A stretch of DNA of 24,000 nucleotides from an uncultured Paraprevotella sp. (GTDB lineage Bacteria > Bacteroidota > Bacteroidia > Bacteroidales > Bacteroidaceae), in contig URKA01000002.1 of assembly GCA_900548345.1 (NCBI GenBank), forward strand, positions 146,127 to 170,126, written 5' to 3'. Below the pieces are notes generated by a model that ran no database searches, had not been told where the DNA came from, and was given only the letters and a program-made list of their open reading frames with translations. The position numbers and the translations under genes are program-made. Position 1 is the first letter of the stretch; every line of letters starts with the position of its first letter. Of this stretch, positions 6,841 to 22,889 are shown piece by piece.

Positions 6841-9800
6841 TTGGTCTGTTTTATGTGAAAGAATAAGGCGTAAAGAATAGGTATGAAGATTAGTGTGACC
6901 AGTGTTCCGAACAACAGTCCGCCCATGACAGAGGCAGCCAGCGAGCCGAACATGGCATCGGTCAGTAACGGAATCATGCCTAAAATTGTGGTAAGCGAGG
7001 CCATCATGACGGGACGCAGGCGGCTCTGTGCACTGTCGGTCAGTGCTTTGACCGGTTCCACGCCTTCATTCAGTTGTAACGTGATTTCGTCCATCAGCAC
7101 AATACCGTTCTTGATAATCATGCCTATCAGTCCGAGTGTGCCCACTATAGCCACGAAATTAAAAGTCTTGCCTGTGATGAGCATGATGGCTACCACACCG
7201 ATGAAGACCAACGGAATGCAACAGAAGATGATGGCAGGCTTGCGGTAGTCCTTGAACAACATGATGAGTATGCCTATCATCAGGATAATGGCCAACGGGA
7301 ATGTACTGAACAGGTACTTCATGGATTTGGTGTTGGCGGCCTTTTCTCCTTGCCATTGCAGGGTATATCCCGCCGGCAGTTCTATTTGGTCTATTTTCGC
7401 GGCAATGGCCTTGCGGGCCTTTTCCGTTTCGATACCCGGTACCGGCGAACATTGCACACGCTGGCTGCGTTGGCCGTCATACCTTGGTACAACAGGGTCT
7501 TCCCATCGGATGTCCACTTTTTTGCTGACTTGTTTCAACGGAGTCGTGGTCATGATATTCTCCACCAAATCTTCTTTGGACAATGTTCCGCTTTTCAACT
7601 TTACAAGCATTTCTTCGTTGACCAATCCGCTGAGTGAGGGGAGTGAAGAGAATACTTGCGTGTTGTCCAAATCATTGATGGGCATTCCCTGTTCGTCCAA
7701 ACATTTCAGGTAAATGTTGTCTTTATGTATGCCTTCATAGAAAGAACCGATGGGAATGCCGCTTGTGGCAGTCAGAAGCGACAGGCTGACATCGTTCCGG
7801 CTCAGTCCCAATGAACGTGCGGCCGGTTGGTCGTATTCCACCGTAAGTACGGGCACCTGAGGGTCCCAGTCGGTGGTTATCAGTTCCACTTCGGGAGAAA
7901 GCTCCATGATGGCGCGGGCACTGTCGGCAAGTTGGTGCAATACGGCAGGGTCCGGACCGAGGAACTGTGCTTCGATGGGATATTTCTTGAACATCAGATT
8001 GTAACGTTTCATCTTCACGTAAGCATCCGGATAGTGTGCTGTCAGGTAGTCCTGAATCTCTTCCATGTTATCCACGAGAGCATCGGAAGATTTAAAGTCG
8101 ATGATGAGTTCGCCGTAGGCTAATGACGGATTGGCTATGCTGCGCACGAGGTTGTAACGTCCGGGAGTTCCTCCGATGGAAGTCGTTACATGGGTAATTT
8201 CGTCCCGGCTTTTCAGGTAAGCCTCAATTTCTTCTAGGTCGTGCTTTACTCTTGTGGAGTTGTTACCTTCCGGAAGTTTGTATTCCATATACATTTGGTC
8301 GTATACCATGTCGGGGAAAAATCCCTGACGCATGTAATTGTAGCCAAGGACGGAAATTCCCAATAGCGTAATCATGGTAATGACGAACGTCCAGCGGTGA
8401 TGCAGGCCGAAGTTCAGGATTGAGCGAAGAATGGCGTATGCCTTTCCGTCGTACCTTCTTGGTTCCTGCGATGTCTGCACTTCAGATTTCAGATAACGGT
8501 TGGCCATCAGAGGGACATGTACCAATGCCAATATCCAACTGAGCAGAAGCGATACAGCCAATACGATGAACAGGTCTCTTGTATAGATTCCGGCCGTGTC
8601 TGGTGAGAGAAAGATGGGCAGGAAGGCTATGATGGCTATCAGGGTGGCTCCCAACAGCGGCATGGCTGTCTGGCGTCCGATGGTCGTCATGGCTTCCATC
8701 CGGTTCTTGCCGGCTTTCAGGTCCACAAGGATGCCGTCGTCGATGACAATGGCATTGTCTACCAGCATACCCATGGCCAAAATGAAAGCGCCTAACGAAA
8801 CGCGTTGCATGGTGCCGTCCATAAACTGCAGGAACAGGAATGAACCGAATACCGTGACAATTAAACTGACACCGATAATCATCCCGCTTCGGAATCCCAT
8901 GGCAATCATCAGTACCAACACGACAATGATGACGGATTCAATCAGATTGATGACGAATGTGCCCAACGATGATCCCACGCGGTCCGGTTGGTGGAATACT
9001 TTATGGAATTCCACACCGGCAGGGAAACGTTCCGTTTTCAGTTGTTCCAATTTGTCTTCCACTTCGCTGCCTACTTTCATGATGTCTGTTCCGCTTGCCG
9101 CGGCTATCAGAATGCCGATGGAACGTTCGCCGTCGTAGAACATTTCGTTACGGGTGGGAGATTCGTATTCTTTTTCTATCTTTGCGATGTCGTTTAGGCG
9201 AAGCTGGTCATCGTCATGTCCTTGTATGAGCATGTTACCGATGTCGTCGACGGTTTTGAATTTGTTGTTCACCGTCACCCGTATGCGGTTGTTCCCATTG
9301 TCGAAATATCCGGTATATGTGGTCTGGTTTTGTCCATTCAGGGTGGCCAGAACTTCTGCAGGCTTCACGCCCAAGTTGGCCATACGGTCTTGCAATAAAG
9401 ATATGTTGATACACTCCGGCCGTTGTCCGTACAATTCCACACGGTCTACTCCGTCAAGTTCTATAAGGTTGCGCTTGATTAGTTCCGCATAGTCCGCCAG
9501 TTCACGGTCGGTCAGTCCGTCTCCCGTTATGGCATAGAACATGCCGTATACATTTCCGAAATCGTCCTTGACAATAGGTTTTCCTGTTCCGGAAGGTAAT
9601 GATGCTTGCGCATCGTTGACTTTTCGGCGCAGCATGTCCCAGCATTGTTCTATATCGTCTTCCTTTACTGTACTCAGAAGTTCTACCTGAATCAGTGAAA
9701 GGTCGTTATATGAGTAACTTTCAATGTTGTCGATATTACCCATTGTGCGGATTTCCTTTTCCAGCACGTCTGTTACTTCCAATTCCACCTGATGTGCCGA

Positions 9801-9965
9801 GGCACCGGGATAAGTGGTTACAATCATGGCCAGTTTGACTTTGATTTCCGGGTCTTCCAGTTTGCTCATCTGGTAACAGGACCAAATGCCTCCGGCCATG
9901 AGGATGGCGATGAAGAAATAAATCAGTTTCTTGTTCTGAAATGCCCATTTGCTGAAATCCATCAT
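6837..9965 (-). CDS. RND efflux pump permease (AcrB/AcrD/AcrF family)
   Basis: 1042 aa with the 12-TM, two-large-loop architecture typical of hydrophobe/amphiphile efflux pumps. It overlaps the adaptor gene by ATGA at 9962-9965. Confidence 0.95.
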   Translation of the reverse strand: MMDFSKWAFQNKKLIYFFIAILMAGGIWSCYQMSKLEDPEIKVKLAMIVTTYPGASAHQVELEVTDVLEKEIRTMGNIDNIESYSYNDLSLIQVELLSTVKEDDIEQCWDMLRRKVNDAQASLPSGTGKPIVKDDFGNVYGMFYAITGDGLTDRELADYAELIKRNLIELDGVDRVELYGQRPECINISLLQDRMANLGVKPAEVLATLNGQNQTTYTGYFDNGNNRIRVTVNNKFKTVDDIGNMLIQGHDDDQLRLNDIAKIEKEYESPTRNEMFYDGERSIGILIAAASGTDIMKVGSEVEDKLEQLKTERFPAGVEFHKVFHQPDRVGSSLGTFVINLIESVIIVVLVLMIAMGFRSGMIIGVSLIVTVFGSFLFLQFMDGTMQRVSLGAFILAMGMLVDNAIVIDDGILVDLKAGKNRMEAMTTIGRQTAMPLLGATLIAIIAFLPIFLSPDTAGIYTRDLFIVLAVSLLLSWILALVHVPLMANRYLKSEVQTSQEPRRYDGKAYAILRSILNFGLHHRWTFVITMITLLGISVLGYNYMRQGFFPDMVYDQMYMEYKLPEGNNSTRVKHDLEEIEAYLKSRDEITHVTTSIGGTPGRYNLVRSIANPSLAYGELIIDFKSSDALVDNMEEIQDYLTAHYPDAYVKMKRYNLMFKKYPIEAQFLGPDPAVLHQLADSARAIMELSPEVELITTDWDPQVPVLTVEYDQPAARSLGLSRNDVSLSLLTATSGIPIGSFYEGIHKDNIYLKCLDEQGMPINDLDNTQVFSSLPSLSGLVNEEMLVKLKSGTLSKEDLVENIMTTTPLKQVSKKVDIRWEDPVVPRYDGQRSQRVQCSPVPGIETEKARKAIAAKIDQIELPAGYTLQWQGEKAANTKSMKYLFSTFPLAIILMIGILIMLFKDYRKPAIIFCCIPLVFIGVVAIMLITGKTFNFVAIVGTLGLIGMIIKNGIVLMDEITLQLNEGVEPVKALTDSAQSRLRPVMMASLTTILGMIPLLTDAMFGSLAASVMGGLLFGTLVTLIFIPILYALFFHIKQTK

Positions 9966-11029
9966 AACATTCCTCCTATATTGGTTTTGCTTGTCGGTGT
10001 GAGCGGGTGTACATTCTCACCGTTTTGGATATGGTGTACGCCGGACGATACGATAATGTCGCCGGATTTGAGATGTTCTGAAGTCACGATGGCACTTCCG
10101 TCACTCTGTAATCTGAGGAGGTTGACAGGACAGTTGCAGACTTTTCCGTTCGATGGGTTGTATTTGAAAACGGAAGTTTTCCCCGCTTTTATCAAGACTG
10201 CACCGGCCGGAATGTTCATAGGTTTGTTATGGATGGTGTCACAGAGTATCGTCACCATGGTATTCATGCCCGGAGAAGGAAGGGGGGATTGGTGTTCCTT
10301 TAGTTTCAGGCGCATGGTGTACAATTGGTTGGCGTTGGCTTTCGGTGTGACGGAAACAGGTTCCAACTGATATGCCTTTCCGGGATAGATATCAAAAGTA
10401 CAATGATAAGACTGAAAATGTTCGCGGCGGATATACTCAGCTGCAGGAAGGTTGATTTCTACATCCGGCTGTCCGTTGTCGATAATGGAAATGACAGGCA
10501 TTCCGGCGCCAACCGTTTCGTAGGCATTAAACAAATGTTTCTGAACGTATCCGTCGAACGGCGCGTATAGTTTGGTATATGCCAATTGTTCTTTATGATG
10601 ATTATATTTGGCTGTGATTTGTTTAAGGCCGTATACGGCTTTGTCATTGGCATTTTCCGTGGTTCCCCCTTCTTTATATAATGCCATGACTCTTTCTGCT
10701 TCGGCCTTGATTTGTTTGTATTCCGCTTCGGTAGCGTCCAATTGTATCTTGTAATCGGTGGGGTCGAGTTCGGCCAATAGTTGTCCCTTCCTGATCCGTG
10801 TTCCTTCTTCGGCGTACATCCTTTGTATGGTTCCGCTGACTTTGAATGCCATATTGATATCTTCGGAAGCTTTTACCTTTCCTGGATATTGAATCATAGT
10901 AAGTTCATTTGCCGGTTTTACGGTGTCGGTCTTGACTGTTTGGACCGTGTCTTTGACGGATTGTTGATGTGAGCAGGCAGTCAGTATGAAGATGCCCAGA
11001 AATCCCGATATTAAATAATCCTTTTTCAT
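9962..11029 (-). CDS. RND efflux periplasmic adaptor (membrane fusion protein, HlyD-type) lipoprotein
   Basis: 355 aa with the lipobox FILTAC, followed by lipoyl/coiled-coil/beta-barrel MFP-like sequence. It is the first gene of the adaptor-pump-OMP operon. Confidence 0.9.
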   Translation of the reverse strand: MKKDYLISGFLGIFILTACSHQQSVKDTVQTVKTDTVKPANELTMIQYPGKVKASEDINMAFKVSGTIQRMYAEEGTRIRKGQLLAELDPTDYKIQLDATEAEYKQIKAEAERVMALYKEGGTTENANDKAVYGLKQITAKYNHHKEQLAYTKLYAPFDGYVQKHLFNAYETVGAGMPVISIIDNGQPDVEINLPAAEYIRREHFQSYHCTFDIYPGKAYQLEPVSVTPKANANQLYTMRLKLKEHQSPLPSPGMNTMVTILCDTIHNKPMNIPAGAVLIKAGKTSVFKYNPSNGKVCNCPVNLLRLQSDGSAIVTSEHLKSGDIIVSSGVHHIQNGENVHPLTPTSKTNIGGML

Positions 11030-11063: not shown

Positions 11064-11197
11064 TTTGGATTCGGATGGATGTAAAAGTCTGATAAGGATA
11101 TTTTTTTGTTCGATTTGTAGGTTTTTAACGTAAAAAATAGCAAAAAGTTCTTCGATATGTATTTATTTTGTGCTGTTCATTTCATTTAAGTCAAACC

Positions 11198-12082
11198 ATG
11201 GCACAATCATCTTATCCTGTCAAGATTACCACCTTTTCCGAGGCGGATTTGTCTCCTTTCGTCCGGGGGCGTATCCTGTCTACACTTGACAAGTGTGGAA
11301 TGTTCTTTTGCAGGAAGGGCGAAGTTGAAATGGAGATAGACGGAACTCCTTATATAATAAGGAAAGGAGATGTTTATTTCTATATGGCTTCGGCGTTGGT
11401 CAGGCTGAACCGTAGGAGTCCGGATTTGGAGGGAGTCATATTGGAAGTTGACCTTGATTATATTCTTCCGGTTTCTCACAAAGTCATGACGATTGAAGAT
11501 ATATTGTTTTTGCGTGATCATCCCTGTGTTACGTTGACCGAGGCCCAGTATGCATATCTGGAGCGGTTGCTTGAAATGTATGGACGGCGGGCAGGCATGG
11601 ATGAGGATGCATCAGGCGGCATGCAAATTCGTTTTCTGCAAAATGAATTGATGAAATCATACGGTCAACTGTTGTTTTGCGAATTGATGGTGATTTATTA
11701 TGCTCATAAAAGCATGCAGCCTGTATCGAGAAATCAGACGGACTACATATTCCAGCGTTTTTTACTGACGTTGTTCCGTTGTTACCGTCGGGAACGTGAT
11801 GTGGTGTTTTATGCGCATGAGCAGAATCTGACGGCACGTTATTTCTCTTCCATTATCAAGGAAAAGTCCGGAAGAACAGCCTTACAATGGATTGTGAGGA
11901 TGGTGATTTCCGAATCCAAGCAACTTTTGGAAAGTTCCGATATGAGTATAAAGGAGATTGCCATGCAGTTGAACTTTCCCACGCAATCTTTTTTCGGAAA
12001 ATATTTCAAGCAGTATGTAGGGATGTCTCCGAAGATGTATCGCATGTCGTTTTTGTCACCTCAAGGCAGGAAGGATGTCTGA
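11198..12082 (+). CDS. AraC-family transcriptional regulator (N-terminal cupin-like sensor plus C-terminal HTH_18)
   Basis: The C-terminus ...ARYFSSIIKEKSGRTALQWIVRMVISESKQLLESSDMSIKEIAMQLNFPTQSFFGKYFKQYVGMSPKMYR is a classic AraC double HTH. The N-terminal KGEVEMEIDGTPYIIRKGDVYF is cupin-like. The ORF track starts at TTG 11168, but I prefer ATG 11198. Confidence 0.85.
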   Translation: MAQSSYPVKITTFSEADLSPFVRGRILSTLDKCGMFFCRKGEVEMEIDGTPYIIRKGDVYFYMASALVRLNRRSPDLEGVILEVDLDYILPVSHKVMTIEDILFLRDHPCVTLTEAQYAYLERLLEMYGRRAGMDEDASGGMQIRFLQNELMKSYGQLLFCELMVIYYAHKSMQPVSRNQTDYIFQRFLLTLFRCYRRERDVVFYAHEQNLTARYFSSIIKEKSGRTALQWIVRMVISESKQLLESSDMSIKEIAMQLNFPTQSFFGKYFKQYVGMSPKMYRMSFLSPQGRKDV

Positions 12083-12142: not shown

Positions 12143-12150
12143 TAAATTTG
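12143..12150 (+). promoter_or_regulatory. Candidate -7 promoter box for the seven-gene redox/Tat operon
   Basis: TAAATTTG at 12143-12150, 27 nt upstream of ATG 12177. Confidence 0.45.
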
Positions 12151-12176
12151 CAATTGTATAAGAAGAATAAAGCAGT

Positions 12177-12737
12177 ATGAAAAAGAAAGCGTTGAACTTA
12201 TTGATTGTAATGTTTGTTATGGTTGGATTGGAAGTGAATGCACAAGAAGCAGGACGGGCAAAGAATGTGCTGGTAGCTTATTTCTCATGGTCGGGAAACA
12301 CGCGTGTCGTTGCGGAGCAGATTCGTGAGTTGACCGGTGGAGACTTGTTTGAAATTAAAACGGTGAAGGAATATCCTGAAGAGTACCGCCCTTGTACAGA
12401 AGTGGCCAAGAAAGAGAAAGAGGCCGATGCCCGGCCTGAATTGCAAGGTAAGTTGGAGAATCTGAGCCGTTATGATGTGGTGTTCGTAGGTTATCCGAAT
12501 TGGTGGGGAACGGCACCAATGGCCGTCTGGACTTTTCTCGGCAGTTACGACTGGACGGATAAAACATTGATTCCATTTTGTACGCACGGTGGTGGAGGAG
12601 AGCAAAACTGTTTTAAAGATTTTGTGAAACACAAAGGAAAGGCCCAGGCCAAGAAGGGATTTATCACGAACGGCGGTCGGGTGAACGTAGCCCGTCCCCA
12701 AGTGGGAAAGTGGTTGGCTGAGATAGGTTTGAAATAA
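12177..12737 (+). CDS. Flavodoxin-like protein (Flavodoxin_4 type) with an N-terminal Sec signal peptide
   Basis: The N-terminus MKKKALNLLIVMFVMVGLEVNA/QE looks like an SPI signal and has no Cys. The mature part starts VLVAYFSWSGNTRVVAEQI, a flavodoxin FMN-phosphate loop pattern, and also contains YPNWWGTAP. Confidence 0.8.
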   Translation: MKKKALNLLIVMFVMVGLEVNAQEAGRAKNVLVAYFSWSGNTRVVAEQIRELTGGDLFEIKTVKEYPEEYRPCTEVAKKEKEADARPELQGKLENLSRYDVVFVGYPNWWGTAPMAVWTFLGSYDWTDKTLIPFCTHGGGGEQNCFKDFVKHKGKAQAKKGFITNGGRVNVARPQVGKWLAEIGLK

Positions 12738-12762
12738 AATACATATCATAAAGAGTTGGCTT

Positions 12763-14262
12763 ATGTTGAAGAAAATCAGGCTGGCGGCAGCGTGCATCTG
12801 TTTTGTATTGGTTACTTTGCTTTTTCTCGATTTTACGGGGGTGGCGCACACTTGGTGGGGGTGGCTGGCCAAAGTTCAGTTTATCCCGGCGTTGCTTGCG
12901 TTGAATGCCATGGTCGTTGTGGTGCTGGTTTTGCTGACTTTATTGTTCGGCAGGGTTTATTGTTCGGTCATTTGTCCGCTTGGCGTTTTTCAAGACGTTG
13001 TTTCTCATGTGGCCGGAAAGCACAAGAAGAACCGTTTCCGTTATTCTCCGGCCGTTTCATGGCTGCGTTACGGAATGTTGGTATTGTTCATATTGCTATG
13101 GATTGCGGGAATGTATGCCGGCATTGCGGGTCTCGGTGCATTGTTCGGGCTTTTGGAGCCATATAGTGCATACGGGCGGATGGCATCCAACTTGTTTGCC
13201 CCGCTTTACCGTTGGGGGAATAACCTGTTGGCATACGGAGCGGAACAAGTTGACAGCTATATGTTCTATTCGGTTGATGTCTGGATGAAAGGAGGACTGA
13301 TAACTGGAGTGGCGGTGTTGACATTCCTTTTATTGGTGTTTCTGGCATGGCGTGGCGGGCGGACTTATTGCAATACGGTGTGTCCGGTAGGTACGATACT
13401 GGGTTTCTTTGCCCGTTTTTCTTGGTTCAAGCCTGTTATCGACAAGACCAAATGCGTGAACTGTCATTTGTGTGCACGTAATTGCAAGGCATCCTGTATC
13501 AATATAAAGGAACATGAGATTGATTACAGCCGCTGTGTGGCGTGTATGGATTGCATCGACAAATGCCCTAAGGGAGCTATTCATTACGTTCATGCCCCAT
13601 CCGGAGAGAAGAGGGGAACGGCCCATACGCCGGATGGCGGGCGTCGTAACTTTCTGACCGTGACATCGTTGTTTGCATTCGGTACGTGGGCAAAGGCGCA
13701 GCAGAAAACTGTGGACGGCGGACTGGCTGTCATTGAAGAAAAGAAAGTTCCGGAGCGGAAAACCCGGTTGACTCCGGCGGGGGCTTTGAGCGCGCGTAAT
13801 TTCTCTTCGCATTGTACGGCCTGTCAGCTGTGTGTGTCGGCTTGTCCCAATGGTGTGTTGCGCCCGTCTTCCTCGTTAGAGAACCTGATGCAGCCGGATA
13901 TGTCTTACGAACGGGGCTATTGCCGTCCGGAATGTGTGCGGTGCTCGGAAGTTTGTCCGTCCGGTGCCATACGTCCGATTACGGTAGCGGAGAAGTCTTT
14001 GGTACAGATAGGTCACGCGGTGTATCTGTATGAGAACTGTGTGGTGAATACCGATGGGGTGGAGTGTGGAAATTGTGCCCGTCATTGTCCTTCGGGAGCC
14101 ATACAGATGGTGCCTTCCGTGGCAGGTGTGCCGGATTCGCCCAAACTGCCGGTCATCAACGAAGAGCGCTGCATCGGGTGCGGTGCCTGCGAGAACCTGT
14201 GTCCGGCCCGTCCTTTCAGTGCCATTTATGTGGAAGGGCATGAAAATCATCGTATCATTTAA
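12763..14262 (+). CDS. Membrane polyferredoxin with a NapH-like N-terminal half fused to a NapG-like C-terminal half
   Basis: Four N-terminal TM segments carry two CX3CP motifs (YCSVICP at aa 66-72, YCNTVCP at aa 202-208). These are followed by CVNCHLCARNC and CVACMDCIDKCP. Next comes GGRRNFLTVTSLFAFGTWAKA (RR at aa 294-295, nt 13642-13647). The remainder holds four further Cys clusters: CTACQLCVSACP, CRPECVRCSEVCP, NC...ECGNCARHCP and CIGCGACENLCP. Confidence 0.85.
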   Translation: MLKKIRLAAACICFVLVTLLFLDFTGVAHTWWGWLAKVQFIPALLALNAMVVVVLVLLTLLFGRVYCSVICPLGVFQDVVSHVAGKHKKNRFRYSPAVSWLRYGMLVLFILLWIAGMYAGIAGLGALFGLLEPYSAYGRMASNLFAPLYRWGNNLLAYGAEQVDSYMFYSVDVWMKGGLITGVAVLTFLLLVFLAWRGGRTYCNTVCPVGTILGFFARFSWFKPVIDKTKCVNCHLCARNCKASCINIKEHEIDYSRCVACMDCIDKCPKGAIHYVHAPSGEKRGTAHTPDGGRRNFLTVTSLFAFGTWAKAQQKTVDGGLAVIEEKKVPERKTRLTPAGALSARNFSSHCTACQLCVSACPNGVLRPSSSLENLMQPDMSYERGYCRPECVRCSEVCPSGAIRPITVAEKSLVQIGHAVYLYENCVVNTDGVECGNCARHCPSGAIQMVPSVAGVPDSPKLPVINEERCIGCGACENLCPARPFSAIYVEGHENHRII

Positions 14263-14277
14263 TTAAAAGACTGTTTC

Positions 14278-15678
14278 ATGGAAAAGAAAGATAAAGGAAT
14301 GAACCGCCGTCGTTTCCTGAAAGTATTCGGTGCCGGTGCGGCTGCCACGACAGCTGCGCTTTACGGTTGTGCCCCCAAGAACGGTGCGTCTTCCGCTGCA
14401 GGCGGGGGTGAGATACCGACCGACAAGATGACTTACCGCACTCATCCCACGAATGGTGACAGGGTGTCTATATTAGGCTATGGTTGTATGAGGCTTCCGA
14501 CTGTAAGTAACGGCAGTGCACGTGAAAGCAAAGACGAAATAGACCAGGAGATGGTGAATAGGCTGACTGATTACGCCCTTGCGCATGGCGTGAATTATTT
14601 CGATACCTCTCCGGCATATTGCAAAGGGCATTCCGAACATGCCATGGGAGTCGCTTTGGGCCGACATCCCCGGAATACATATTATATCGCCACTAAGCTG
14701 TCTAACTTCTCGCCCGACACGTGGAGTCGGGAGGCCTCTCTTGCCATGTATCACAATTCGTTCAAGGAATTGCAGGTAGACTACATCGACTACATGTTGC
14801 TGCACGGCATAGGAATGGGCGGAATGGCAGCCTTTAACGGGCGATACGTTGAAAACGGGGTGCTTGATTTCCTTTTGAACGAGCGGAAGGAAGGACGTAT
14901 CCGCAATTTAGGATTTTCGTATCATGGCGACGTGGATGTGTTCGACTATCTGTTGTCACGACATGAAGAATACAAATGGGATTTCGTACAGATTCAGTTG
15001 AACTATGTGGATTGGCGGCATGCCAAGGAAGTCAACGACAGGAATACCAACGCGGAATATCTGTACGGAGAATTGGAAAAGCGCCATATTCCGGCTGTCA
15101 TCATGGAACCTCTTTTAGGAGGAAGGCTTTCCAATGTGCCCGACCATATCGTAGGGCGTCTGAAACAGCGCCGCCCGAACGACAGCGTGGCTTCGTGGGC
15201 TTTCCGGTTTGCCGGTTCTCCTCAGGGTGTGCTGACCGTGTTGAGCGGAATGACCTACATGGAACATTTGCAGGATAATCTGCGGACTTATTCGCCGCTG
15301 GATGTACTGACCGACGGAGACAAGGAGTTTCTGGAAGAGACCGCACGTCTGATGTTGAAGTATCCTACAGTGCCCTGTAACGACTGTAAATACTGTATGC
15401 CTTGTCCATACGGTATCGACATTCCTTCCATTCTGGTACATTATAATAAATGTGTCAATCAGGGAAATGTTCCGGAAAGTGTGCAGGAAGAGAACTACAG
15501 AAAGGCGCGTCGCGCCTTTCTGGTCGGATACGACCGCAGTGTGCCGCGCTTGCGTCAGGCCGACCATTGTATAGGATGCGGCCAATGCGTGAGCCATTGT
15601 CCGCAGAATATCAACATTCCGAGAGAGCTGCACCGCATAGACGGATTTGTGGAACAGTTGAAACAAGGCACGCTGTAG
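14278..15678 (+). CDS. Aldo/keto reductase with a C-terminal 4Fe-4S ferredoxin domain, a Tat signal peptide and a possible lipobox
   Basis: MEKKDKGMNRRRFLKVFGAGAAATTAALYGC contains the twin-arginine consensus RRxFLK, an Ala-rich h-region and LYGC. The AKR core includes YGCMRLP, NYFDTSPAY, YIATK and DYMLLHG. The C-terminus carries CNDCKYCMPCP and CIGCGQCVSHCP. Confidence 0.85.
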   Translation: MEKKDKGMNRRRFLKVFGAGAAATTAALYGCAPKNGASSAAGGGEIPTDKMTYRTHPTNGDRVSILGYGCMRLPTVSNGSARESKDEIDQEMVNRLTDYALAHGVNYFDTSPAYCKGHSEHAMGVALGRHPRNTYYIATKLSNFSPDTWSREASLAMYHNSFKELQVDYIDYMLLHGIGMGGMAAFNGRYVENGVLDFLLNERKEGRIRNLGFSYHGDVDVFDYLLSRHEEYKWDFVQIQLNYVDWRHAKEVNDRNTNAEYLYGELEKRHIPAVIMEPLLGGRLSNVPDHIVGRLKQRRPNDSVASWAFRFAGSPQGVLTVLSGMTYMEHLQDNLRTYSPLDVLTDGDKEFLEETARLMLKYPTVPCNDCKYCMPCPYGIDIPSILVHYNKCVNQGNVPESVQEENYRKARRAFLVGYDRSVPRLRQADHCIGCGQCVSHCPQNINIPRELHRIDGFVEQLKQGTL

Positions 15679-15679
15679 G

Positions 15680-16105
15680 ATGGAAGAGATTGTCGGAATG
15701 TTGCATGAGGGTGGATATTCCTGTGTGTTGCGCAACGGGGATATATATACTTTTACGCAGCGCGGCGTAGCCGATTTGTTCGATTTGCTGACCCGTCGCC
15801 CCGACCTGCTGAGAGGGGCGGATATGGCAGACAAGGTAGTGGGGAAGGGGGCGGCCGCTCTTATGGTTTTGGGCGGAGTGTCCCGTCTGCATGCCGATGT
15901 ATTGAGCGAGCCGGCATGGCATCTGTTGGCACAATGTGGTGTGGATACGACTTATGGCAGTCTTGTGTCCCACATCATGAACCGTGCCCAAACCGGATGG
16001 TGTCCGGTGGAAAGTCTTTGCCGTGACGCGGCCACGCCGGCCGACTGTCTGACGTTGATAGAAGGTTTCTTGAAAGTAAATGATGTGAAAACAACAATAG
16101 ATTGA
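15680..16105 (+). CDS. DUF1893 (TM1506-like) domain protein; function unknown
   Basis: 141 aa. DKVVGKGAAALMVLGGV...HADVLSEPA...HIMNRAQTGWCPVE matches my recollection of the DUF1893 family. No signal peptide is present. The ATG lies 1 nt after the AKR stop. Confidence 0.7.
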   Translation: MEEIVGMLHEGGYSCVLRNGDIYTFTQRGVADLFDLLTRRPDLLRGADMADKVVGKGAAALMVLGGVSRLHADVLSEPAWHLLAQCGVDTTYGSLVSHIMNRAQTGWCPVESLCRDAATPADCLTLIEGFLKVNDVKTTID

Positions 16106-16108
16106 AAT

Positions 16109-16618
16109 ATGGAAACAACCGTAAAACTGTATACCACAGGGTATACTGAAATGAAAACTTATTTGTTGGCTGCGCTTTTTGTATCGGGCAATATTGTCTT
16201 GCCCCAGCTGTTTCATCTGATGCCCCAAGGGGGGATGATATGGTTGCCTATTTATTTCTTTACTTTGATAGGCGCCTATAAATATGGATGGAAAACAGGT
16301 CTGTTGACGGCAGTCGGCTCGCCGTTGGTCAATTCATGGCTATTCGGTATGCCTTCACCTGCCGTATTGCCGGCCATCCTGCTGAAGTCCGTGTTGCTGG
16401 CTTTGGTGGCCGGTTTCACGGCCTCCCGTCTGAAGCGTGTCAGCATCCCGATTATGTTGGCTGTCGTACTTTTCTATCAGGTGGCCGGAACAGCGGGTGA
16501 ATGGCTCATGAGCGGAAGTCTGACGCTTGCCATGCAGGATTTCCGCATAGGACTTCCGGGTATGGCTTTGCAGGTAGTGGGAGGATATTATTTTGTGAAA
16601 CATTTAATCTTTAAATAA
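16109..16618 (+). CDS. Small polytopic membrane protein resembling an ECF-transporter S-component
   Basis: 169 aa with about 5-6 TM segments. WLPIYFFTLIGAYKYGWKTGLLTAVGSPLVNSWLFGMP resembles the conserved S-component core. No ECF ATPase or T component is present nearby. The start could instead be ATG 16151. Confidence 0.5.
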   Translation: METTVKLYTTGYTEMKTYLLAALFVSGNIVLPQLFHLMPQGGMIWLPIYFFTLIGAYKYGWKTGLLTAVGSPLVNSWLFGMPSPAVLPAILLKSVLLALVAGFTASRLKRVSIPIMLAVVLFYQVAGTAGEWLMSGSLTLAMQDFRIGLPGMALQVVGGYYFVKHLIFK

Positions 16619-16620
16619 TT

Positions 16621-16824
16621 ATGTTTGGAATAGGAACGCAGGAAATACTTTTTATTCTGCTGATTGTTTTACTGTTCTTCGGCGGCAAAAAGATTCCTGA
16701 ACTGATGAAAGGGTTGGGAAAAGGCGTGAAAAGCTTTAAAGACGGGATGAATGGCGTGGACACGCCTGAAAAGGACGAAGGTGTCAAGCATGACGCTCAG
16801 GAACGTGGGAAGGCGGAAGATTGA
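16621..16824 (+). CDS. tatA: Twin-arginine translocase subunit TatA/E
   Basis: 67 aa. MFGIGTQEILFILLIVLLFFGGKKIPELMKGLGKGVKSFKDG shows the canonical TatA TM helix, FG hinge and amphipathic helix. Confidence 0.88.
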   Translation: MFGIGTQEILFILLIVLLFFGGKKIPELMKGLGKGVKSFKDGMNGVDTPEKDEGVKHDAQERGKAED

Positions 16825-16830
16825 ATCGTC

Positions 16831-17637
16831 ATGGCGGAATCTGGAGATAAGAATACGCTGACTTTCTGGGAGCATCTGGATGAGTTGCGGGGCTGTCTGA
16901 TTCGGGCTGCCGTCGTAACGCTTTTGTGTGCCGTGGCGGCTTTCTTTCTGAAAGACGCCCTGTTCGGTATCGTGCTGGCACCTAAGTCGCCGGATTTCGT
17001 GACCTACCGTCTGTTGGAACAGGCGGGTGAATGGGTTTCGGGCGGCGTACAGCCCGAATCTTCCCGTTTCGAGGTCAGGCTGATAAATACGGCATTGACG
17101 GAACAGTTCGTTATCCACATGAAAACAGCTGTTTATGCCGGTGTGCTTTGCGCTTCTCCTTATATACTCTATTTGCTGTTCCGTTTTGTTTCTCCCGCAT
17201 TGTATGCCAACGAACGTCGGTATGCCGTGCGGATGGTCGGTGCGGGGTATGTCATGTTTCTGACAGGTACGCTGCTGAATTACTTTCTGATATTTCCTCT
17301 TACATTACGGTTCCTGGGAACTTATCAGGTAAGTGTGGAAGTGGAAAATGCCATCACTTTACAGTCTTATATGGACACTTTGCTGATGATGAGCCTGATG
17401 ATGGGGATTGTTTTCGAGATACCTGTGCTCTGCTGGCTGTTGGCGCGCATGGGCGTGTTGCGTGCCGGCTTTATGCGGCGTTACCGCAGGCATGCCATCG
17501 TGTTGATATTGACGGTGGCGGCCATCATCACTCCTACGTCGGATGTGTTTACGCTGTTGATGGTCGGCATGCCGATGTGGCTTCTTTACGAATCAAGCAT
17601 CTTCATCGTGCGTGGCGTGGAGGGGAAAATTCATTGA
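16831..17637 (+). CDS. tatC: Twin-arginine translocase subunit TatC
   Basis: 268 aa with a six-TM profile. The N-terminus LTFWEHLDELRGCLIRA and the motif FRFVSPALYANERRY are TatC hallmarks. It starts 6 nt after tatA. Confidence 0.9.
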   Translation: MAESGDKNTLTFWEHLDELRGCLIRAAVVTLLCAVAAFFLKDALFGIVLAPKSPDFVTYRLLEQAGEWVSGGVQPESSRFEVRLINTALTEQFVIHMKTAVYAGVLCASPYILYLLFRFVSPALYANERRYAVRMVGAGYVMFLTGTLLNYFLIFPLTLRFLGTYQVSVEVENAITLQSYMDTLLMMSLMMGIVFEIPVLCWLLARMGVLRAGFMRRYRRHAIVLILTVAAIITPTSDVFTLLMVGMPMWLLYESSIFIVRGVEGKIH

Positions 17638-17640
17638 ACA

Positions 17641-17765
17641 GTCTGCCCAAAAATGCAGACCAGTCCGCCCCAAAAATGCACACAGGTGAGCGTTCGATTC
17701 TTCACCTGTGAGCGTTTGATTCTTCACCTGTGACCGTTTCGTCGCACACAGGTGTGCATTTTCGC
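17641..17765 (+). repeat. Structured repeat and probable terminator downstream of tatC
   Basis: A small hairpin GTCTGC/GCAGAC lies at 17641-17660. The direct repeat GCCC(C)AAAAATGCA occurs twice. A 22-bp tandem repeat, GTGAGCGTTCGATTCTTCACCT (17686-17707) and GTGAGCGTTTGATTCTTCACCT (17708-17729), is followed by a degenerate third unit. The outer inverted repeat is AAAATGCACAC (17673-17683) / GTGTGCATTTT (17752-17762). The inner CACAGGTG/CACCTGTG sequences can also pair. Confidence 0.55.
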
Positions 17766-17976: not shown

Positions 17977-19779
17977 ATGAAAATTAAGCTACGCAGTGCG
18001 CAAAGCACAGAAGGCCGCCGTATGGCGGGAGCCCGCGCCTTGTGGGTGGCCAATGGCATGAAACGCGAACAGTTCGGTAAGCCGATTATCGCCATTGTCA
18101 ACTCCTTTACCCAATTTGTTCCCGGTCATACCCATCTGCATGAAATCGGTCAGGTGGTGAAGGCCGAGATTGAGAAGATGGGATGTTACGCCGCCGAATT
18201 CAACACGATTGCAATCGACGACGGCATCGCGATGGGCCATGACGGTATGCTTTATTCCCTGCCTTCGCGCGATATTATTGCCGACAGCGTGGAGTATATG
18301 GTGAATGCGCATAAGGCGGATGCGATGATTTGCATTTCCAACTGTGATAAGATTACACCGGGTATGCTGATGGCCAGCATGCGTCTGAATATCCCTACGG
18401 TGTTCGTTTCTGGCGGTCCGATGGAGGCGCATAAAATCAACGGTGAGAATGCCGACCTGATTACGGCGATGATAAAAGGGGCCGACGCATCCGTAAGTGA
18501 TGAAGAGATGGAGAAGATTGAGGTGTGTGCCTGTCCGGGATGCGGCAGCTGTTCGGGCATGTTCACGGCCAACTCCATGAACAGCCTGACAGAAGCCATC
18601 GGATTGTCTTTGCCCGGCAACGGAACCATATTGGCCACGCACACGAACCGTATACAGTTGTTCCGCGATGCGGCCCGTCTGGTGGTGGAGAATGCCTTTA
18701 AATATTATGAAGAGGGAGACGAGAGCGTGCTGCCTAAAAGCATCGCCACACGTCAGGCCTTCCTGAATGCCATGACGCTCGACATTGCCATGGGAGGCTC
18801 TTCAAACACGGTGCTGCACCTGTTGGCCGTGGCCAATGAGGCCGGCGTGGATTTCAAGATGGCGGATATAGACGCACTGAGCCGTAAAGTGCCCTGTCTG
18901 TGCAAACTGTCTCCCAATACGCAGAAGTATTCCATACAGGAATGTAACCGTGCTGGCGGTATCCTGAATATTTTGGGTGAACTGCACAAGGCCGGTCTGC
19001 TCGATGCTTCGTGCAGGCGCGTGAACGGCAGTACACTGGGAGAGGACATAGATAAGTACAGTATAGTGAAAGCTGCGGCCGACCCTGAGGCGCTTCGCAT
19101 CTACAGCAGTGCGCCCGGCGGTGTGTTCAGCAACAGGATGGGGTCGCAAAGCAATACGTATGAGACGCTCGATACCGACCGTGCCACAGGATGTATCCGC
19201 GATGTGGAGCATGCCTACAGCAAGGATGGCGGACTGGCGGTGTTGTTCGGCAACATCGCGCAGGACGGTTGCGTGGTGAAGACGGCCGGAGTGGATGAAA
19301 GCATCTGGCATTTTTGCGGACCGGCAAAAGTATTCGACTCTCAGGAAGATGCCTGCGAGGGTATACTCGGTGGCAAGGTGGTGAGCGGAGACGTGGTCGT
19401 GATTACCCACGAAGGGCCGAAAGGCGGGCCGGGCATGCAGGAAATGCTCTATCCCACGTCTTATCTCAAAAGCCGCCATCTGGGTAAGGAATGTGCCTTG
19501 ATAACCGACGGGCGTTTTTCGGGAGGCACATCGGGGCTGAGCATCGGGCATATTTCTCCCGAAGCGGCAGCTGGAGGCAATATCGGCAAAATCGTGGACG
19601 GGGATATGATAGAAATTGACATACCCGGCCGCAGCATCAATGTGAAACTGAGCGAAGAGGAACTGGCCGCGCGTCCGCAACGGCCGATGACGCGCAACCG
19701 TGTAGTACCGAAATCTTTGAAAGCATACGCTTCGATGGTAAGCTCGGCCGACAAGGGCGGTGTGCGCATTATAGATTAA
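17977..19779 (+). CDS. ilvD: Dihydroxy-acid dehydratase
   Basis: 600 aa. [30 protein letters not shown] and [16 protein letters not shown] are canonical IlvD motifs. Confidence 0.97.
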
Positions 19780-19796
19780 AAAACGACAGACAGAAT

Positions 19797-21494
19797 ATGG
19801 CAAAAGAGAGAATTACAGGCGCGGAGGCACTGATGCGTTCGTTGGAACATGAGGGTGTGGAGACGCTTTTCGGTTATCCCGGAGGTGCCATCATGCCGGT
19901 GTACGACGCTTTGTATGGTTATAGAGACAAACTGAATCATATTTTGGTTCGGCACGAACAAGCGGCTGCGCATGCCGCACAGGGATATGCACGTGTATCC
20001 GGTAAGGTCGGAGTGTGTCTGGTGACCAGCGGTCCGGGGGCGACCAACACCATCACCGGAATCGCGGATGCCATGATGGACAGTACGCCCATCGTGGTGA
20101 TTGCAGGACAGGTGGGGACTTCCATGTTGGGCTCTGATGCGTTTCAGGAGTGTGACCTGGTGGGCGTGACACAGCCTATCAGCAAATGGGCGTACCAGAT
20201 TCGCCGCCCCGAAGATGTGGCATGGGCTGTGAGCCGGGCTTTCTATATTGCAAAAAGCGGGCGTCCCGGTCCGGTCGTGCTGGATTTCGCCAAGAATGCA
20301 CAGGTAGGTATGGTGGAATATGAACCTCAGCCTACGGATTTTATCCGGAGCTACGTTCCTGTGCCCAAAACGGCTCCTGAGGCAGTCCGTACGGCGGCAC
20401 AGTTGATTAATGCCGCCAAACGTCCTTTCATCCTGGTAGGGCAGGGTGTGGAACTGGGTGGTGCGCAGGAAGAAGTGCTCCGCCTGATGGAGCGCGCCGG
20501 CATCCCTGCAGGATGCACCTTGCTCGGACTTTCCGCACTGCCGTCTTCCCATCCCTTGAATATGGGAATGTTGGGCATGCACGGAAGCCTGGCCAATAGC
20601 GTGAAGACACAGGAGTGCGATGTGTTGATAGCCATAGGCATGCGTTTTGACGACCGTATCACGGGTAAGTTGAGCACCTATGCCACGCAGGCGAAAAAGA
20701 TACATTTCGAAATAGACCCCAGCGAAATCAATAAGAATGTGCCGGTTGACGTGCCCGTACTTGGCGATTGCAAGGAGACCCTCTCTGCGTTGCTTGAACT
20801 GGTTGAACCGAATGAACACAAGGAATGGATAGGTAGTTTCCAGGAATATTATGATAAGGAGAACGAGATGGTCATACAGCCTGAAATCCATCCGGCAGAC
20901 GGTCCCATAAAGATGGGAGAAGTGGTGCGTAAGGTGACGGAGATGACGGATAACAAGGCGGTGCTGGTGACTGATGTCGGTCAGAACCAGATGCTGGCAG
21001 CACGTTATTTCATGTTCTCCCAGAAACGCAGTATCGTGACCTCCGGAGGAATGGGCACGATGGGCTTCGGACTTCCCGCGGCCATCGGTGCGACGTTCGG
21101 TGCTCCCGACCGTATGGTGTGTCTGTTCCTCGGAGACGGTGGCATGCAGATGACCATACAGGAACTGGGCACCATAATGGAGCAGCATAGTCCGGTAAAA
21201 ATCATCCTGTTGAACAATAATTATCTGGGCAATGTACGTCAGTGGCAGGAGATGTTCTTCGGCAAACGTTATTCTTTTACTCCCATGGTAAATCCCGACT
21301 ACAATATGATTGCCTCGGCCTACCGCATACCGAACCGTACCGTGGTGGACCGTGGCGAACTGGAAGAGGCCATACAGGAGATGATTGACACCGAAGGGCC
21401 TTATCTGCTTCAGGTGGGCGTGATAGAAGAGGGACGTGTGCTGCCGATGTGCTGTCCGGGTAATGATGTGGATAATATGATATTGGACTATTAA
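19797..21494 (+). CDS. ilvB: Acetolactate synthase (acetohydroxyacid synthase), large catalytic subunit
   Basis: 565 aa. It shows a ThDP-enzyme N-terminus (GAEALMRSLEHEGVETLFGYPGGAI), GPGATN and the ThDP-binding GDGGMQM...NN motif. Confidence 0.95.
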   Translation: MAKERITGAEALMRSLEHEGVETLFGYPGGAIMPVYDALYGYRDKLNHILVRHEQAAAHAAQGYARVSGKVGVCLVTSGPGATNTITGIADAMMDSTPIVVIAGQVGTSMLGSDAFQECDLVGVTQPISKWAYQIRRPEDVAWAVSRAFYIAKSGRPGPVVLDFAKNAQVGMVEYEPQPTDFIRSYVPVPKTAPEAVRTAAQLINAAKRPFILVGQGVELGGAQEEVLRLMERAGIPAGCTLLGLSALPSSHPLNMGMLGMHGSLANSVKTQECDVLIAIGMRFDDRITGKLSTYATQAKKIHFEIDPSEINKNVPVDVPVLGDCKETLSALLELVEPNEHKEWIGSFQEYYDKENEMVIQPEIHPADGPIKMGEVVRKVTEMTDNKAVLVTDVGQNQMLAARYFMFSQKRSIVTSGGMGTMGFGLPAAIGATFGAPDRMVCLFLGDGGMQMTIQELGTIMEQHSPVKIILLNNNYLGNVRQWQEMFFGKRYSFTPMVNPDYNMIASAYRIPNRTVVDRGELEEAIQEMIDTEGPYLLQVGVIEEGRVLPMCCPGNDVDNMILDY

Positions 21495-21506
21495 AGCGAA
21501 TGAAAG

Positions 21507-22085
21507 ATGGAACAGGAAAAGATATTCTATACATTGATAGTTTTTTCTGAAAACTTTGCAGGATTGTTGAATCAGGTCACTGCGGTTTTCACCCGCCGTC
21601 AGGTCAATATCGAGAGTCTGAACGTGTCGGCGTCCAGCATCAGTGGCGTGCACAAATATACCATCACGTGCTGGAGCACGGAAGAGCAGATACAGATTAT
21701 CACCAAACAGATAGAGAAACGTATCGATGTGCTTCAGGCGCATTACTTTACGGATGACCAGATTTTCATACAGGAAGTGGCACTTTACAAATTGTCTACG
21801 TCGGCTGTACTGGAGAATCCGGATATTTCATCGGCCGTGCGGCATCATGGCGCCCAGATTGTAGAAGTGAATCCTACGTATACGGTTGTGAGTAAGAAAG
21901 GCTCTACGGAAGATATTGTGTCGCTGTATCATGCACTCGATGAATACAAGTGTGTGTTGCAATACGTTCGTTCCGGACGGATTGCCATTACGAAGAGTTG
22001 CACGGAATATTTGGATGAATTTTTGAGCGAACGTCAGCGTGTGTATGATGATTTGCAGGCGCAGAAAAAGGAAAACATAGGATGA
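21507..22085 (+). CDS. ilvN: Acetolactate synthase small (regulatory, ACT-domain) subunit
   Basis: 192 aa. IFYTLIVFSENFAGLLNQVTAVFTRRQVNIESLNVS is the ACT-domain N-terminus typical of IlvN/IlvH. It lies immediately after ilvB. Confidence 0.88.
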   Translation: MEQEKIFYTLIVFSENFAGLLNQVTAVFTRRQVNIESLNVSASSISGVHKYTITCWSTEEQIQIITKQIEKRIDVLQAHYFTDDQIFIQEVALYKLSTSAVLENPDISSAVRHHGAQIVEVNPTYTVVSKKGSTEDIVSLYHALDEYKCVLQYVRSGRIAITKSCTEYLDEFLSERQRVYDDLQAQKKENIG

Positions 22086-22849: not shown

Positions 22850-22881
22850 CAATTTATTATGCTTGGTTTGAAATAATTTTG

Positions 22882-22889
22882 TATCTTTG
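22882..22889 (+). promoter_or_regulatory. Candidate internal -7 promoter box ahead of ilvC
   Basis: TATCTTTG at 22882-22889, in the 107-bp AT-rich gap. It lies 68 nt upstream of ATG 22957. Confidence 0.35.

Follow-up and report, generated by a model that had tools for sequence, protein, structure and literature searches.

A polyferredoxin paired with a twin-arginine-signal Fe-S aldo-keto reductase is the core of a modular gene cluster in gut Bacteroidales

Here, we analyze a seven-gene cluster in a 24,000-nt stretch of DNA from an uncultured Paraprevotella sp. (assembly GCA_900548345.1, contig URKA01000002.1, forward-strand positions 146,127 to 170,126). This whole stretch is referred to as the window, and coordinates within it are counted from its first letter. 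Two of the genes, one for a polyferredoxin (PFD) and the other for an aldo-keto reductase (AKR) with a twin-arginine (Tat) signal motif and two C-terminal [4Fe-4S] motifs, form a pair that recurs across Bacteroidales. The unit is modular rather than a fixed set of seven genes, and the PFD-AKR pair is its core. Judged from sequence, the pair looks like a new link from membrane electron transport to chemistry outside the cytoplasm. The pair is uncharacterized and common in gut Bacteroidales.

The seven open reading frames (ORFs) lie on the + strand, span 12177-17637, and are separated by 25, 15, 1, 3, 2 and 6 nt. The first-pass annotation of this DNA had described the same layout, and its gaps match the ORF list exactly. 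It took the cluster to be a self-contained reductase module with its own Tat translocase, encoding, in order, a flavodoxin-like protein with a Sec signal, a five-transmembrane (5-TM) polyferredoxin with NapH-like and NapG-like halves, an AKR with a twin-arginine signal, a DUF1893 protein, a membrane protein resembling a substrate-binding (S) component of an energy-coupling factor (ECF) transporter, TatA and TatC. As described below, these product assignments hold up, whereas a self-contained module is not supported and a private translocase is unlikely.

Results

The polyferredoxin-aldo-keto reductase pair is conserved, its neighbors vary

A scan with the AKR, in which each species was represented by a single genome, gave 80 loci. 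Nearly all are from Bacteroidales, and identity ranges over 55-77%. These loci were searched with the window proteins by tblastn, and all ORFs were clustered. PFD is encoded directly upstream of the Tat-AKR in 72 of the 80 loci, with a median gap of about 34 nt. Among the 52 loci that have at least 5 kb of sequence on each side, PFD is found in 50, again directly upstream, tatC in 20, DUF1893 in 19, the S-component-like gene in 13, a small TonB-dependent receptor in 6, a secreted DUF362 protein in 5 and the flavodoxin in 4; the PFD-AKR pair stands alone in 19. A lack of conserved co-occurrence had been set beforehand as a refutation test, and what we find for PFD and Tat-AKR is a pairing that is near-invariant in Bacteroidales and that recurs in other lineages. 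The same test goes against the flavodoxin as an obligatory member, since it accompanies the AKR in only 6/80 loci. For DUF1893, for the S-component-like protein and for tatAC, the share of loci is 25-40% each. Hence the pair is constant and the seven-gene module is not.

The seven-gene arrangement is nevertheless more than chance, because the full order recurs in a Paraprevotella metagenome-assembled genome (MAG; locus L004, 60-77% amino-acid identity) and, minus the flavodoxin, in a very prevalent gut species (L171), where an RND pump and an AraC gene are followed by PFD-AKR-DUF1893-S-component-tatA-tatC. In another prevalent species (L172), a TonB-dependent receptor sits between DUF1893 and the S-component-like gene. 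More divergent Tat-AKR loci show further variation. Two of them (L164, L165) keep the pairing with PFD but reverse the gene order; a Firmicute-like contig (L169) carries a split NapH-like protein and polyferredoxin with the Tat-AKR; in L166 PFD lies 5 kb from the Tat-AKR; and in L170 there is no PFD. Carriers of the pair include Bacteroides, Phocaeicola, Parabacteroides, Prevotella, Paraprevotella, Alistipes, Butyricimonas and Barnesiella, along with Duncaniella and other Muribaculaceae, and single variants are found on >100 independent contigs.

Two of the variable neighbors call for brief comment. The secreted DUF362 protein (~320 aa) has a signal or lipoprotein N-terminus and faint LarA-N similarity. 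It lies by the module in seven loci (L003, at 15379-16353, and L006, L019, L020, L046, L066 and L080), usually beside the small TonB-dependent receptor. The sequence of that receptor was tried as a guide to the substrate of the system and set aside, as its similarity is only of a generic B12, siderophore or hemin type and far under the cut-offs.

The polyferredoxin has NapH-like and NapG-like halves

PFD (12763..14262, + strand, 499 aa) was characterized with Pfam and NCBIfam models, hydropathy, motifs and 69 orthologues, and the NapH-like and NapG-like halves noted in the first-pass annotation proved to be real. The N-terminal half is a NapH-like 4-TM domain (Fer4_5, PF12801, twice; 62 bits) with four strongly hydrophobic segments, CX3CP motifs at aa 67 (CSVICP) and aa 203 (CNTVCP), and, after TM4, two canonical [4Fe-4S] motifs predicted to face the cytoplasm. 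The C-terminal half resembles NapG and holds four [4Fe-4S] Cys motifs (aa 351, 391, 435 and 470); NapG and NapF models cover aa 319-482. The protein has six ferredoxin-type cluster motifs overall, and Pfam recognizes at least four Fer4 motifs. Joining the halves is the sequence RRNFL (aa 294-298), which precedes a weak TM5, a segment that stays below KD19 >= 1.5 and is followed by K311 and K315. The RRxFL motif is strongly conserved among the 69 orthologues: position 294 is R in 62 and K in 7, R295 is present in all 69, and F297 in 66.

Matches to NapH, NapG and NapF are all sub-threshold. Because the NapG and NapH scores lie far below the NCBIfam equivalog cut-offs, PFD is not NapGH proper, and napA is present neither in the window nor in the related loci. 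By its architecture, PFD appears to belong instead to the polytopic polyferredoxins that are inserted jointly by Sec and Tat, as NapH-NapG fusions. Tooke et al. (2017) demonstrated such joint insertion for a 'polytopic polyferredoxin' of this kind, Q1NSB0 of the delta-proteobacterium MLMS-1 (PMC5449189).

The aldo-keto reductase carries a twin-arginine signal, a lipobox and two cluster motifs

The AKR (14278..15678, + strand, 466 aa) was examined by Pfam, alignment and AlphaFold. It contains an Aldo_ket_red domain (PF00248, 105 bits against a cut-off of 24) and a C-terminal Fer4_9 domain with the motifs CxxCxxCxxCP and CxxCxxCxxxCP. Its N-terminus reads NRRRFLK, followed by a hydrophobic stretch that ends in LYGC31, with Cys31 as the lipobox residue. 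The twin-arginine signal, the possible lipobox and the two 4Fe-4S motifs noted in the first-pass annotation are thus all present, and they are also conserved. An alignment of 22 diverse homologues, the most distant at 33% identity, shows no substitution of R10, R11 or the eight cluster cysteines, and among AKR orthologues RR occurs in 76/79 and a lipobox-like Cys in 72/79. The Pfam TAT_signal score is 16.7, below the cut-off of 22.7. Taken with the conserved internal RRxFL of PFD before its weak TM5, the conserved N-terminal RR of the AKR bears out the suggestion that two products need Tat.

In the 22-homologue alignment, conservation reaches at least 90% at D109, Y114 and K140 and is complete at D171; His176, as the fourth member of the catalytic tetrad, was assigned by eye. 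By the same reading, most of the cofactor-site motifs are retained (the counterparts of GxS, Q..Y, PLxxG and SG...DN), but the Asn equivalent to N167 of AKR1 is replaced by Tyr or Phe. The AlphaFold model has a predicted local distance difference test (pLDDT) score of 87.6, and Foldseek matches it to AKR11C1, DepB and AKR14A1 with probability 1.0, the best folds being NAD(P)H-dependent AKRs. At the sequence level, the closest PDB relatives of the domain are L-galactose dehydrogenases (E about 1e-11, about 20% identity), and the PDB sequence search returned no solved Fe-S AKR.

The Fe-S AKR family, which we take to be COG1453, falls into two groups. One comprises abundant cytoplasmic forms of ~375 aa that lack a signal; members of the other are longer and have a twin-arginine motif at the N-terminus. 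The PFD-AKR pair is often directly adjoined by a gene for another Fe-S AKR, a signal-less paralogue of ~382 aa that shares 22-25% identity with the exported AKR, for example in L001 (7291-8439), L006 (11414-12532), L019 (3386-4525) and L064 (11402-12511).

DUF1893 is a likely partner of the aldo-keto reductase

The fourth gene (15680..16105, + strand) begins 1 nt past the AKR stop and encodes a 141-aa protein without a signal peptide. As predicted, it belongs to the DUF1893/TM1506 family (PF08973, 159 bits). Its PDB relatives are 1VK9 (E = 2.8e-9) and 9E9A, the latter a second solved 'DUF1893 domain-containing protein' for which our literature search found no associated paper. In-frame fusions of DUF1893 to the C-terminus of the Tat-AKR occur in L030, L039, L048, L073 and P0122. 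In these fusions, DUF1893 would have to be exported with the AKR, because it is in frame at the C-terminus of a Tat substrate. Free DUF1893 lacks a signal in 18/18 loci. Because of the fusions, the signal-less free form and the 1-nt gap in the window, we read DUF1893 as a likely AKR partner, a subunit that would follow the AKR wherever it goes. In a Firmicute locus, a MerR gene is found with the array cytoplasmic AKR-DUF1893-(ferredoxin-nitroreductase)-FMN reductase.

Two other arrangements were considered and set aside. In L003 (11494-13851), the DUF1893 ORF has no stop and runs in frame into a TonB-dependent receptor gene, yielding an annotated 785-aa 'fusion'. This cannot serve as proof of a periplasmic DUF1893, as the receptor signal peptide, MTKKLACALFTCMLLGTGLQAQ, follows the DUF1893 domain; the 'fusion' may represent two products or a membrane-tethered precursor. 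The locus, also mentioned in PMC3239186, shows DUF1893-receptor linkage, not topology. P0154, in which a signal and a DUF1893-like domain precede an AKR that seems to have no Fe-S domain, was treated as an outlier and left aside.

Flavodoxin and S-component-like protein are accessories

The first gene (12177..12737, + strand) encodes a secreted flavodoxin-like protein of 186 aa, a lineage-variable accessory. The domain match (PF12682, Flavodoxin_4, 110 bits) is accompanied by an intact FMN phosphate-binding loop, YFSWSGNT (aa 35-42), and by a classical signal peptide, MKKKALNLLIVMFVMVGLEVNA, which ends in VNA immediately before QE, in agreement with the predicted Sec signal. PDB relatives are 3KLB, 4J8P and 4ICI. 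In the 6/80 loci that have it, the flavodoxin is always a neighbor of the AKR and shares its strand. In L071 (8639-9934), no PFD is nearby, and its place directly upstream of the Tat-AKR is taken by a tandem pair of genes for secreted Flavodoxin_4 proteins. The link to the AKR is not random, because of this consistent adjacency and the replacement of PFD. The L071 arrangement also suggests that the flavodoxin may be an alternative electron partner of the AKR.

The fifth gene (16109..16618, + strand) encodes a 169-aa membrane protein. It has no Pfam match even at E <= 1, and the PDB sequence search gave no relative. The predicted resemblance to an ECF S-component is supported by orthologues and by fold. 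A Butyricimonas orthologue reaches 27.0 bits against PF12822 (cut-off 30.7); for many orthologues, a PF12822 match is precomputed and NCBI gives the name 'ECF transporter S component'; and the AlphaFold model (pLDDT 80.9) has S-components as all of its top 13 PDB matches (RibU, PanT, ThiT, FolT and others; TM-score about 0.5-0.65, probability 0.85-1.0). An ECF energizing module (A/A'/T) was recognized neither in the window nor in the recurrent neighbor clusters of these loci, in which the sole recurrent ABC ATPase is DrrA-like.

The Tat genes are most likely those of the general Tat system

TatA (16621..16824, + strand, 67 aa) and TatC (16831..17637, + strand, 268 aa) were correctly identified, each scoring over its NCBIfam cut-off (TIGR01411, 58.1 against 53.9 bits; TIGR00945, 164.1 against 132.7 bits) and matching the corresponding Pfam domain (PF02416, 50 bits; PF00902, 223 bits). 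That they form a translocase of the module's own is not borne out. A metagenome scan with the window TatC returned 80 loci. In 14 of these, tatAC lies beside PFD-AKR, or beside an AKR at a contig end; in about 55, S-component-tatA-tatC occurs alone among unrelated neighbors; these loci belong to two very common human-gut contig types (L107, 7107-8834, and L152, 7094-8822) with no PFD or AKR within 8 kb. TatA and TatC homologues have also been reported in each of seven sequenced Bacteroides genomes (PMC6281302). Since close TatC relatives occur without PFD-AKR and TatA and TatC were reported in each of these Bacteroides genomes, the operon tatAC is most likely the general Tat system of the cell, located next to two of its clients, and not a private copy. 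Linkage of tatAC to the S-component-like gene is persistent.

Operon limits and flanking genes

The sequence TAAATTTG, a match to the Bacteroidetes-type -7 promoter box TAnnTTTG, is present at 12143..12150 (+ strand), 27 nt before the first ATG, as the first-pass annotation had stated. This call rests on a consensus match. The motif is short, and the window holds 23 copies where 13.6 +/- 3.4 are expected. Because it also precedes several other operon starts (at 238, 11056 on the - strand, 17929 and 22874), the 12143 box is a reasonable but weak promoter candidate. A second copy within the cluster, TAGGTTTG at 12724, lies 32 nt before the PFD gene. A scan for promoters inside the operon was uninformative, as it relied on sigma-70 hexamers although Bacteroidetes promoters are of another type, and a scan of the same region for terminators was likewise uninformative, with terminator-like sites near shuffle expectation.

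Downstream of tatC, at 17641..17755 (+ strand), is a cluster of stem-loops and repeats that likely marks the 3' end of the transcript. Its minimum free energy is -45.1 kcal/mol, compared with -31.1 +/- 3.5 in shuffled sequences (z = -4.0). Several strong hairpins are formed by tandem near-repeats, TTCTTCACCTGTGAGCGTTT and TTCTTCACCTGTGACCGTTT, and could represent a terminator or an element like a repetitive extragenic palindrome. The next box, TAATTTTG at 17929, lies upstream of ilvD. Together with the box at 12143, the structured stretch and the box at 17929 make the 5' and 3' limits of the operon plausible.

Upstream of the operon is an AraC-family gene (11168..12082, + strand; HTH_18, 64 bits), which is a candidate regulator. 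Divergent from it, on the - strand, is an RND efflux operon (5473-11029) comprising genes for an outer membrane factor (5473-6840), the RND pump (6837-9965) and a membrane fusion protein (9962-11029). The order RND pump-AraC-PFD-AKR is shared with L171, and similar arrangements are seen in L013, L033 and L060; xenobiotic co-regulation of pump and module is possible.

Downstream is an ilv cluster (17977-24000), in which we tentatively assign 17977-19779 to ilvD and 19797-21494 to the large subunit of acetolactate synthase. These are followed by the small acetolactate synthase subunit (21507-22085), an inserted acyl-ACP thioesterase (22082-22849) and ketol-acid reductoisomerase (from 22879). Farther upstream in the window is a Cons_hypoth698 (PF03601) membrane protein (2826-3938, - strand). 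The same family is found in L107 (4076-5062). There it occurs with a LysR regulator, and the S-component-tatAC unit follows a few kb downstream. This may reflect residual synteny.

An Rfam scan of the window and six related loci for riboswitches, at gathering thresholds, gave only tRNAs and one unrelated small RNA match. The latter, to the Helicobacter '5' ureB sRNA' family (67 bits, gathering 40), is at 2684-2979 of L006, an Alistipes MAG; it is taxonomically unexpected and unrelated to the module.

Discussion

We propose that PFD and AKR form a two-protein, membrane-bound oxidoreductase that faces the periplasm, is linked to the quinone pool and runs in the reductive direction, with DUF1893 co-exported in association with the AKR. 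We hold this with moderate confidence. PFD would be inserted by Sec for TM1-4 and by Tat for TM5 and the folded NapG-like domain. The AKR would fold and gain its two [4Fe-4S] clusters in the cytoplasm, where it could bind the signal-less DUF1893 and carry it through Tat as a hitchhiker; once exported, it would be lipid-anchored at Cys31 and docked on the NapG-like domain. The Fe-S chain of PFD would then conduct electrons to the periplasm from the menaquinone pool, and possibly from cytoplasmic donors via the two cytoplasmic clusters, in the order cytoplasmic clusters, membrane domain, NapG-like domain, AKR dicluster, active site. In this way, electrons could be exchanged between the quinone pool and a small-molecule substrate held in the TIM barrel of the AKR, reduction being favored. 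NapH-like proteins have been described as modular conduits 'to reductases or from oxidases' (PMC8238504). The substrate would need a potential above that of menaquinol (e.g. a quinone, an alpha-dicarbonyl or a similarly activated carbonyl), and the activity might serve as an electron sink or in detoxification. The presence of tatA and tatC in the operon would be due to the dependence of at least two products on Tat, although they are most likely the general system; the S-component-like protein, the secreted flavodoxin, and the TonB-dependent receptor and secreted DUF362 protein of relatives would be exchangeable accessories.

As to physiological role, genomic context points in two directions. 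The AraC/RND and MerR/nitroreductase contexts lean towards handling of electrophiles or xenobiotics. The context with receptor and S-component speaks rather for uptake of some specific compound.

Several considerations weigh against the proposed complex. The E0' of menaquinone/menaquinol is about -74 mV, compared with about -200 mV for aldehyde/alcohol couples. Quinol-driven reduction of ordinary carbonyls would therefore be unfavorable, so the first idea of a menaquinol-linked carbonyl reductase, though plausible, is thermodynamically problematic for ordinary aldehydes and ketones. The potentials call for a substrate that is a better oxidant, an enzyme that works oxidatively, or low-potential electron donors in the cytoplasm. 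In addition, AKRs are hydride (two-electron) enzymes while Fe-S clusters carry one electron, and the conserved core has no flavin to bridge the two, the flavodoxin being present in <10% of loci. The AKR retains most NAD(P)-binding signature elements and its top structural matches are NAD(P)H enzymes, for which reason the Fe-S domain may not feed the active site directly. PFD scores only 65.9 bits against NapG (cut-off 269) and 60-68 bits against NapH (cut-offs 213-234). A TonB-dependent importer, found in 8/80 loci plus L003 and L172, fits nutrient acquisition better than detoxification. Finally, the data show gene order, domains, motif conservation and co-occurrence, from which topology, hitchhiking, quinone coupling, direction and substrate are inferred.

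The thermodynamic problem can be met by turning the enzyme around. The AKR might be a periplasmic dehydrogenase that oxidizes an alcohol or sugar hemiacetal and passes the electrons through PFD to menaquinone, for example in support of fumarate respiration. Oxidation is the direction that suits ordinary alcohol/carbonyl couples, the L-galactose dehydrogenases to which the AKR is closest in the PDB are oxidative enzymes, and a TonB-dependent receptor could supply the donor substrate. NapH-like modules have also been found with an extracytosolic alcohol oxidase as partner (PMC8238504). However, the mismatch between hydride and single-electron transfer is the same in this direction, NapGH and NosGH are known as quinol dehydrogenases rather than quinone reductases, and the similarity to L-galactose dehydrogenases, at about 20% identity, is weak and not specific among AKRs. 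On balance, we think an oxidative enzyme unlikely. It is also conceivable that PFD is fed not by quinol but by a low-potential cytoplasmic donor (ferredoxin, flavodoxin or an NAD(P)H-linked source), which would drive otherwise unfavorable carbonyl reduction in the periplasm. The two canonical cytoplasmic cluster motifs after TM4 are in line with this, as is a [FeFe]-hydrogenase-like gene directly upstream of the AKR in L169. Yet no conserved cytoplasmic donor gene lies beside the pair, no cofactor is known to carry electrons across the bilayer in NapH, and NapGH is experimentally a quinol dehydrogenase (cited in PMC5449189). We consider cytoplasmic feeding very improbable.

Other alternatives concern how much of the cluster belongs together. 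The functional unit could be confined to PFD-AKR(-DUF1893), the flavodoxin, S-component-like protein and tatAC being neighbors by descent or convenience in an operon of mixed function. Individual accessories are found in just 8-38% of well-flanked loci, the pair occurs alone in 19/52, S-component-tatA-tatC exists as a stand-alone unit in common gut contigs, and TatA and TatC homologues were reported in all seven sequenced Bacteroides genomes (PMC6281302). Moreover, the TAGGTTTG box at 12724 could drive PFD apart from the flavodoxin gene. Against this, accessories that are present nearly always form a contiguous run on one strand, with an order that recurs among loci of 55-78% identity; Tat motifs are found in two products; the spacing of 1-6 nt points to translational coupling; and the place of PFD directly upstream of the AKR is taken in L071 by a pair of secreted flavodoxins. 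A mixed operon seems somewhat unlikely to us. Another possibility is reduce-then-import salvage of a vitamin-like or metal-chelate nutrient, which the TonB-dependent receptor would admit to the periplasm, PFD-AKR(-DUF1893) would reduce there, and the S-component-like protein would import. The order PFD-AKR-DUF1893-TBDT-S-component-tatAC (TBDT, TonB-dependent receptor) is seen in L172 and about 10 other loci, the S-component fold of the fifth gene product is supported by its structural model, the receptor's best family matches are of BtuB, siderophore and hemin types, and the pair often has a gene for a cytoplasmic Fe-S AKR paralogue as its neighbor (L001, L006, L019, L064). One-electron chemistry, such as reduction of an Fe(III) chelate, would also suit Fe-S clusters. 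On the other hand, the window and most other loci lack the receptor (present in 8/80), and its matches, far under family cut-offs, carry no substrate information. No riboswitch was detected in the window or six related loci, ECF A/T energizing genes were not recognized among the recurrent neighbors, and the S-component-like gene also accompanies tatAC in loci that have no PFD-AKR in the vicinity. We judge such a salvage route quite unlikely.

A bolder form of the proposed two-protein complex would have the first AKR wired to the respiratory chain through Fe-S clusters instead of free NAD(P)H, making it a widespread periplasmic 'respiratory AKR' of gut Bacteroidales that works on some gut metabolite as terminal reductase or donor dehydrogenase, with DUF1893 as an obligatory Tat hitchhiker, the receptor and solitary S-component as a reduce-then-import route in many species, and Tat itself kept largely for this complex in many gut Bacteroidales. 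Such an extended scheme is possible but, in our view, doubtful. If the proposed complex is correct, the catalytic range of NapGH-type conduits would be widened to carbonyl, alcohol or quinone chemistry, and two orphan families, the Fe-S AKRs and DUF1893, would gain a first functional context. It would also furnish Bacteroidetes candidates for joint Sec/Tat insertion and for hitchhiking, both of which are rare among Tat systems, and would point to an unrecognized periplasmic redox activity in abundant human gut bacteria, possibly relevant to the transformation of xenobiotics and metabolites.

Parts of the proposal have parallels among known systems. Glucose-fructose oxidoreductase of Zymomonas is a folded, cofactor-loaded Tat passenger, and HybOC and DmsAB are hitchhiker pairs. 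The AKR, with its cluster motifs and possible signal-less partner, resembles these as a folded cofactor oxidoreductase that would travel via Tat, but the enzyme families differ and export is here predicted. Solitary ECF-type S-components of Gram-negative bacteria are also known, e.g. BtuM, encoded next to BtuB. Like BtuM, the fifth gene product is a small protein of S-component fold with no recognized ECF module nearby and, sometimes, a TonB-dependent receptor alongside. Unlike BtuM-type proteins, it has no detectable sequence relation to an S-component family of defined substrate, and its gene is tightly linked to tatAC.

The first-pass annotation knew of no characterized system with this composition. 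That is correct insofar as our literature search found no description of the PFD-AKR pairing and no paper combining AKR, Tat, Fe-S and Bacteroides; work on COG1453/K07079, judged by titles and abstracts, contained nothing on this enzyme, and no function for DUF1893/TM1506 beyond a 2011 prediction was found. A 2026 preprint on an acetol dehydrogenase surfaced in the search but was discarded, having matched only through 'naphthoquinone'. The claim needs qualifying, however, as there is prior art both for the PFD class (PMC5449189) and for the AKR-TM1506-membrane protein linkage (PMC3239186).

With NapGH/NosGH modules and the fusion of Tooke et al., PFD shares the 4-TM NapH-like domain with CX3CP motifs, the cytoplasmic [4Fe-4S] motifs, the twin-arginine motif right before a weak TM5 and the four-cluster NapG-like domain, predicted to be periplasmic. 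Tooke et al. described three cytoplasmic clusters where PFD has two canonical motifs, and reported neither Bacteroidetes members nor partner enzymes. An adjacent catalytic partner with a Tat signal is a further feature in common, but here this partner is an Fe-S AKR rather than a molybdo-, copper- or haem enzyme. Meheust et al. (2021) found Fer4_5 membrane proteins in modular association with NosZ, PceA, NirS and ExaA (PMC8238504). PFD shares with these systems a Fer4_5 membrane protein that combines with various extracytosolic reductases or oxidases. They employ an ApbE-flavinylated FMN-binding domain, whereas PFD has a NapG-like polyferredoxin relay and neither FMN_bind nor ApbE was recognized in the window; AKR partners are not mentioned there. 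Iyer et al. (2011) linked the same three families in operons of Firmicutes and Bacteroidetes, namely TM1506, a '5TM' protein and an AKR whose C-terminus is rich in Cys (PMC3239186), and the Firmicute AKR-DUF1893 pair is confirmed here. To these authors the Fe-S domain was a zinc ribbon, and the Tat signal, polyferredoxin and tatAC went unremarked; they proposed sensing of NAD or ADP-ribose and transport control rather than an extracytoplasmic redox complex.

In sum, the Sec/Tat polyferredoxin, the NapGH/NosGH-style module, the AKR-TM1506-membrane protein linkage and the cofactor-carrying Tat passenger are known kinds. What appears to be new, as far as we have found, is the near-obligate pairing of such a polyferredoxin with a Tat-signal, probably lipid-anchored Fe-S AKR, its breadth in gut Bacteroidales, the fusions that argue for co-export of DUF1893, and the embedding of tatAC in the operon.

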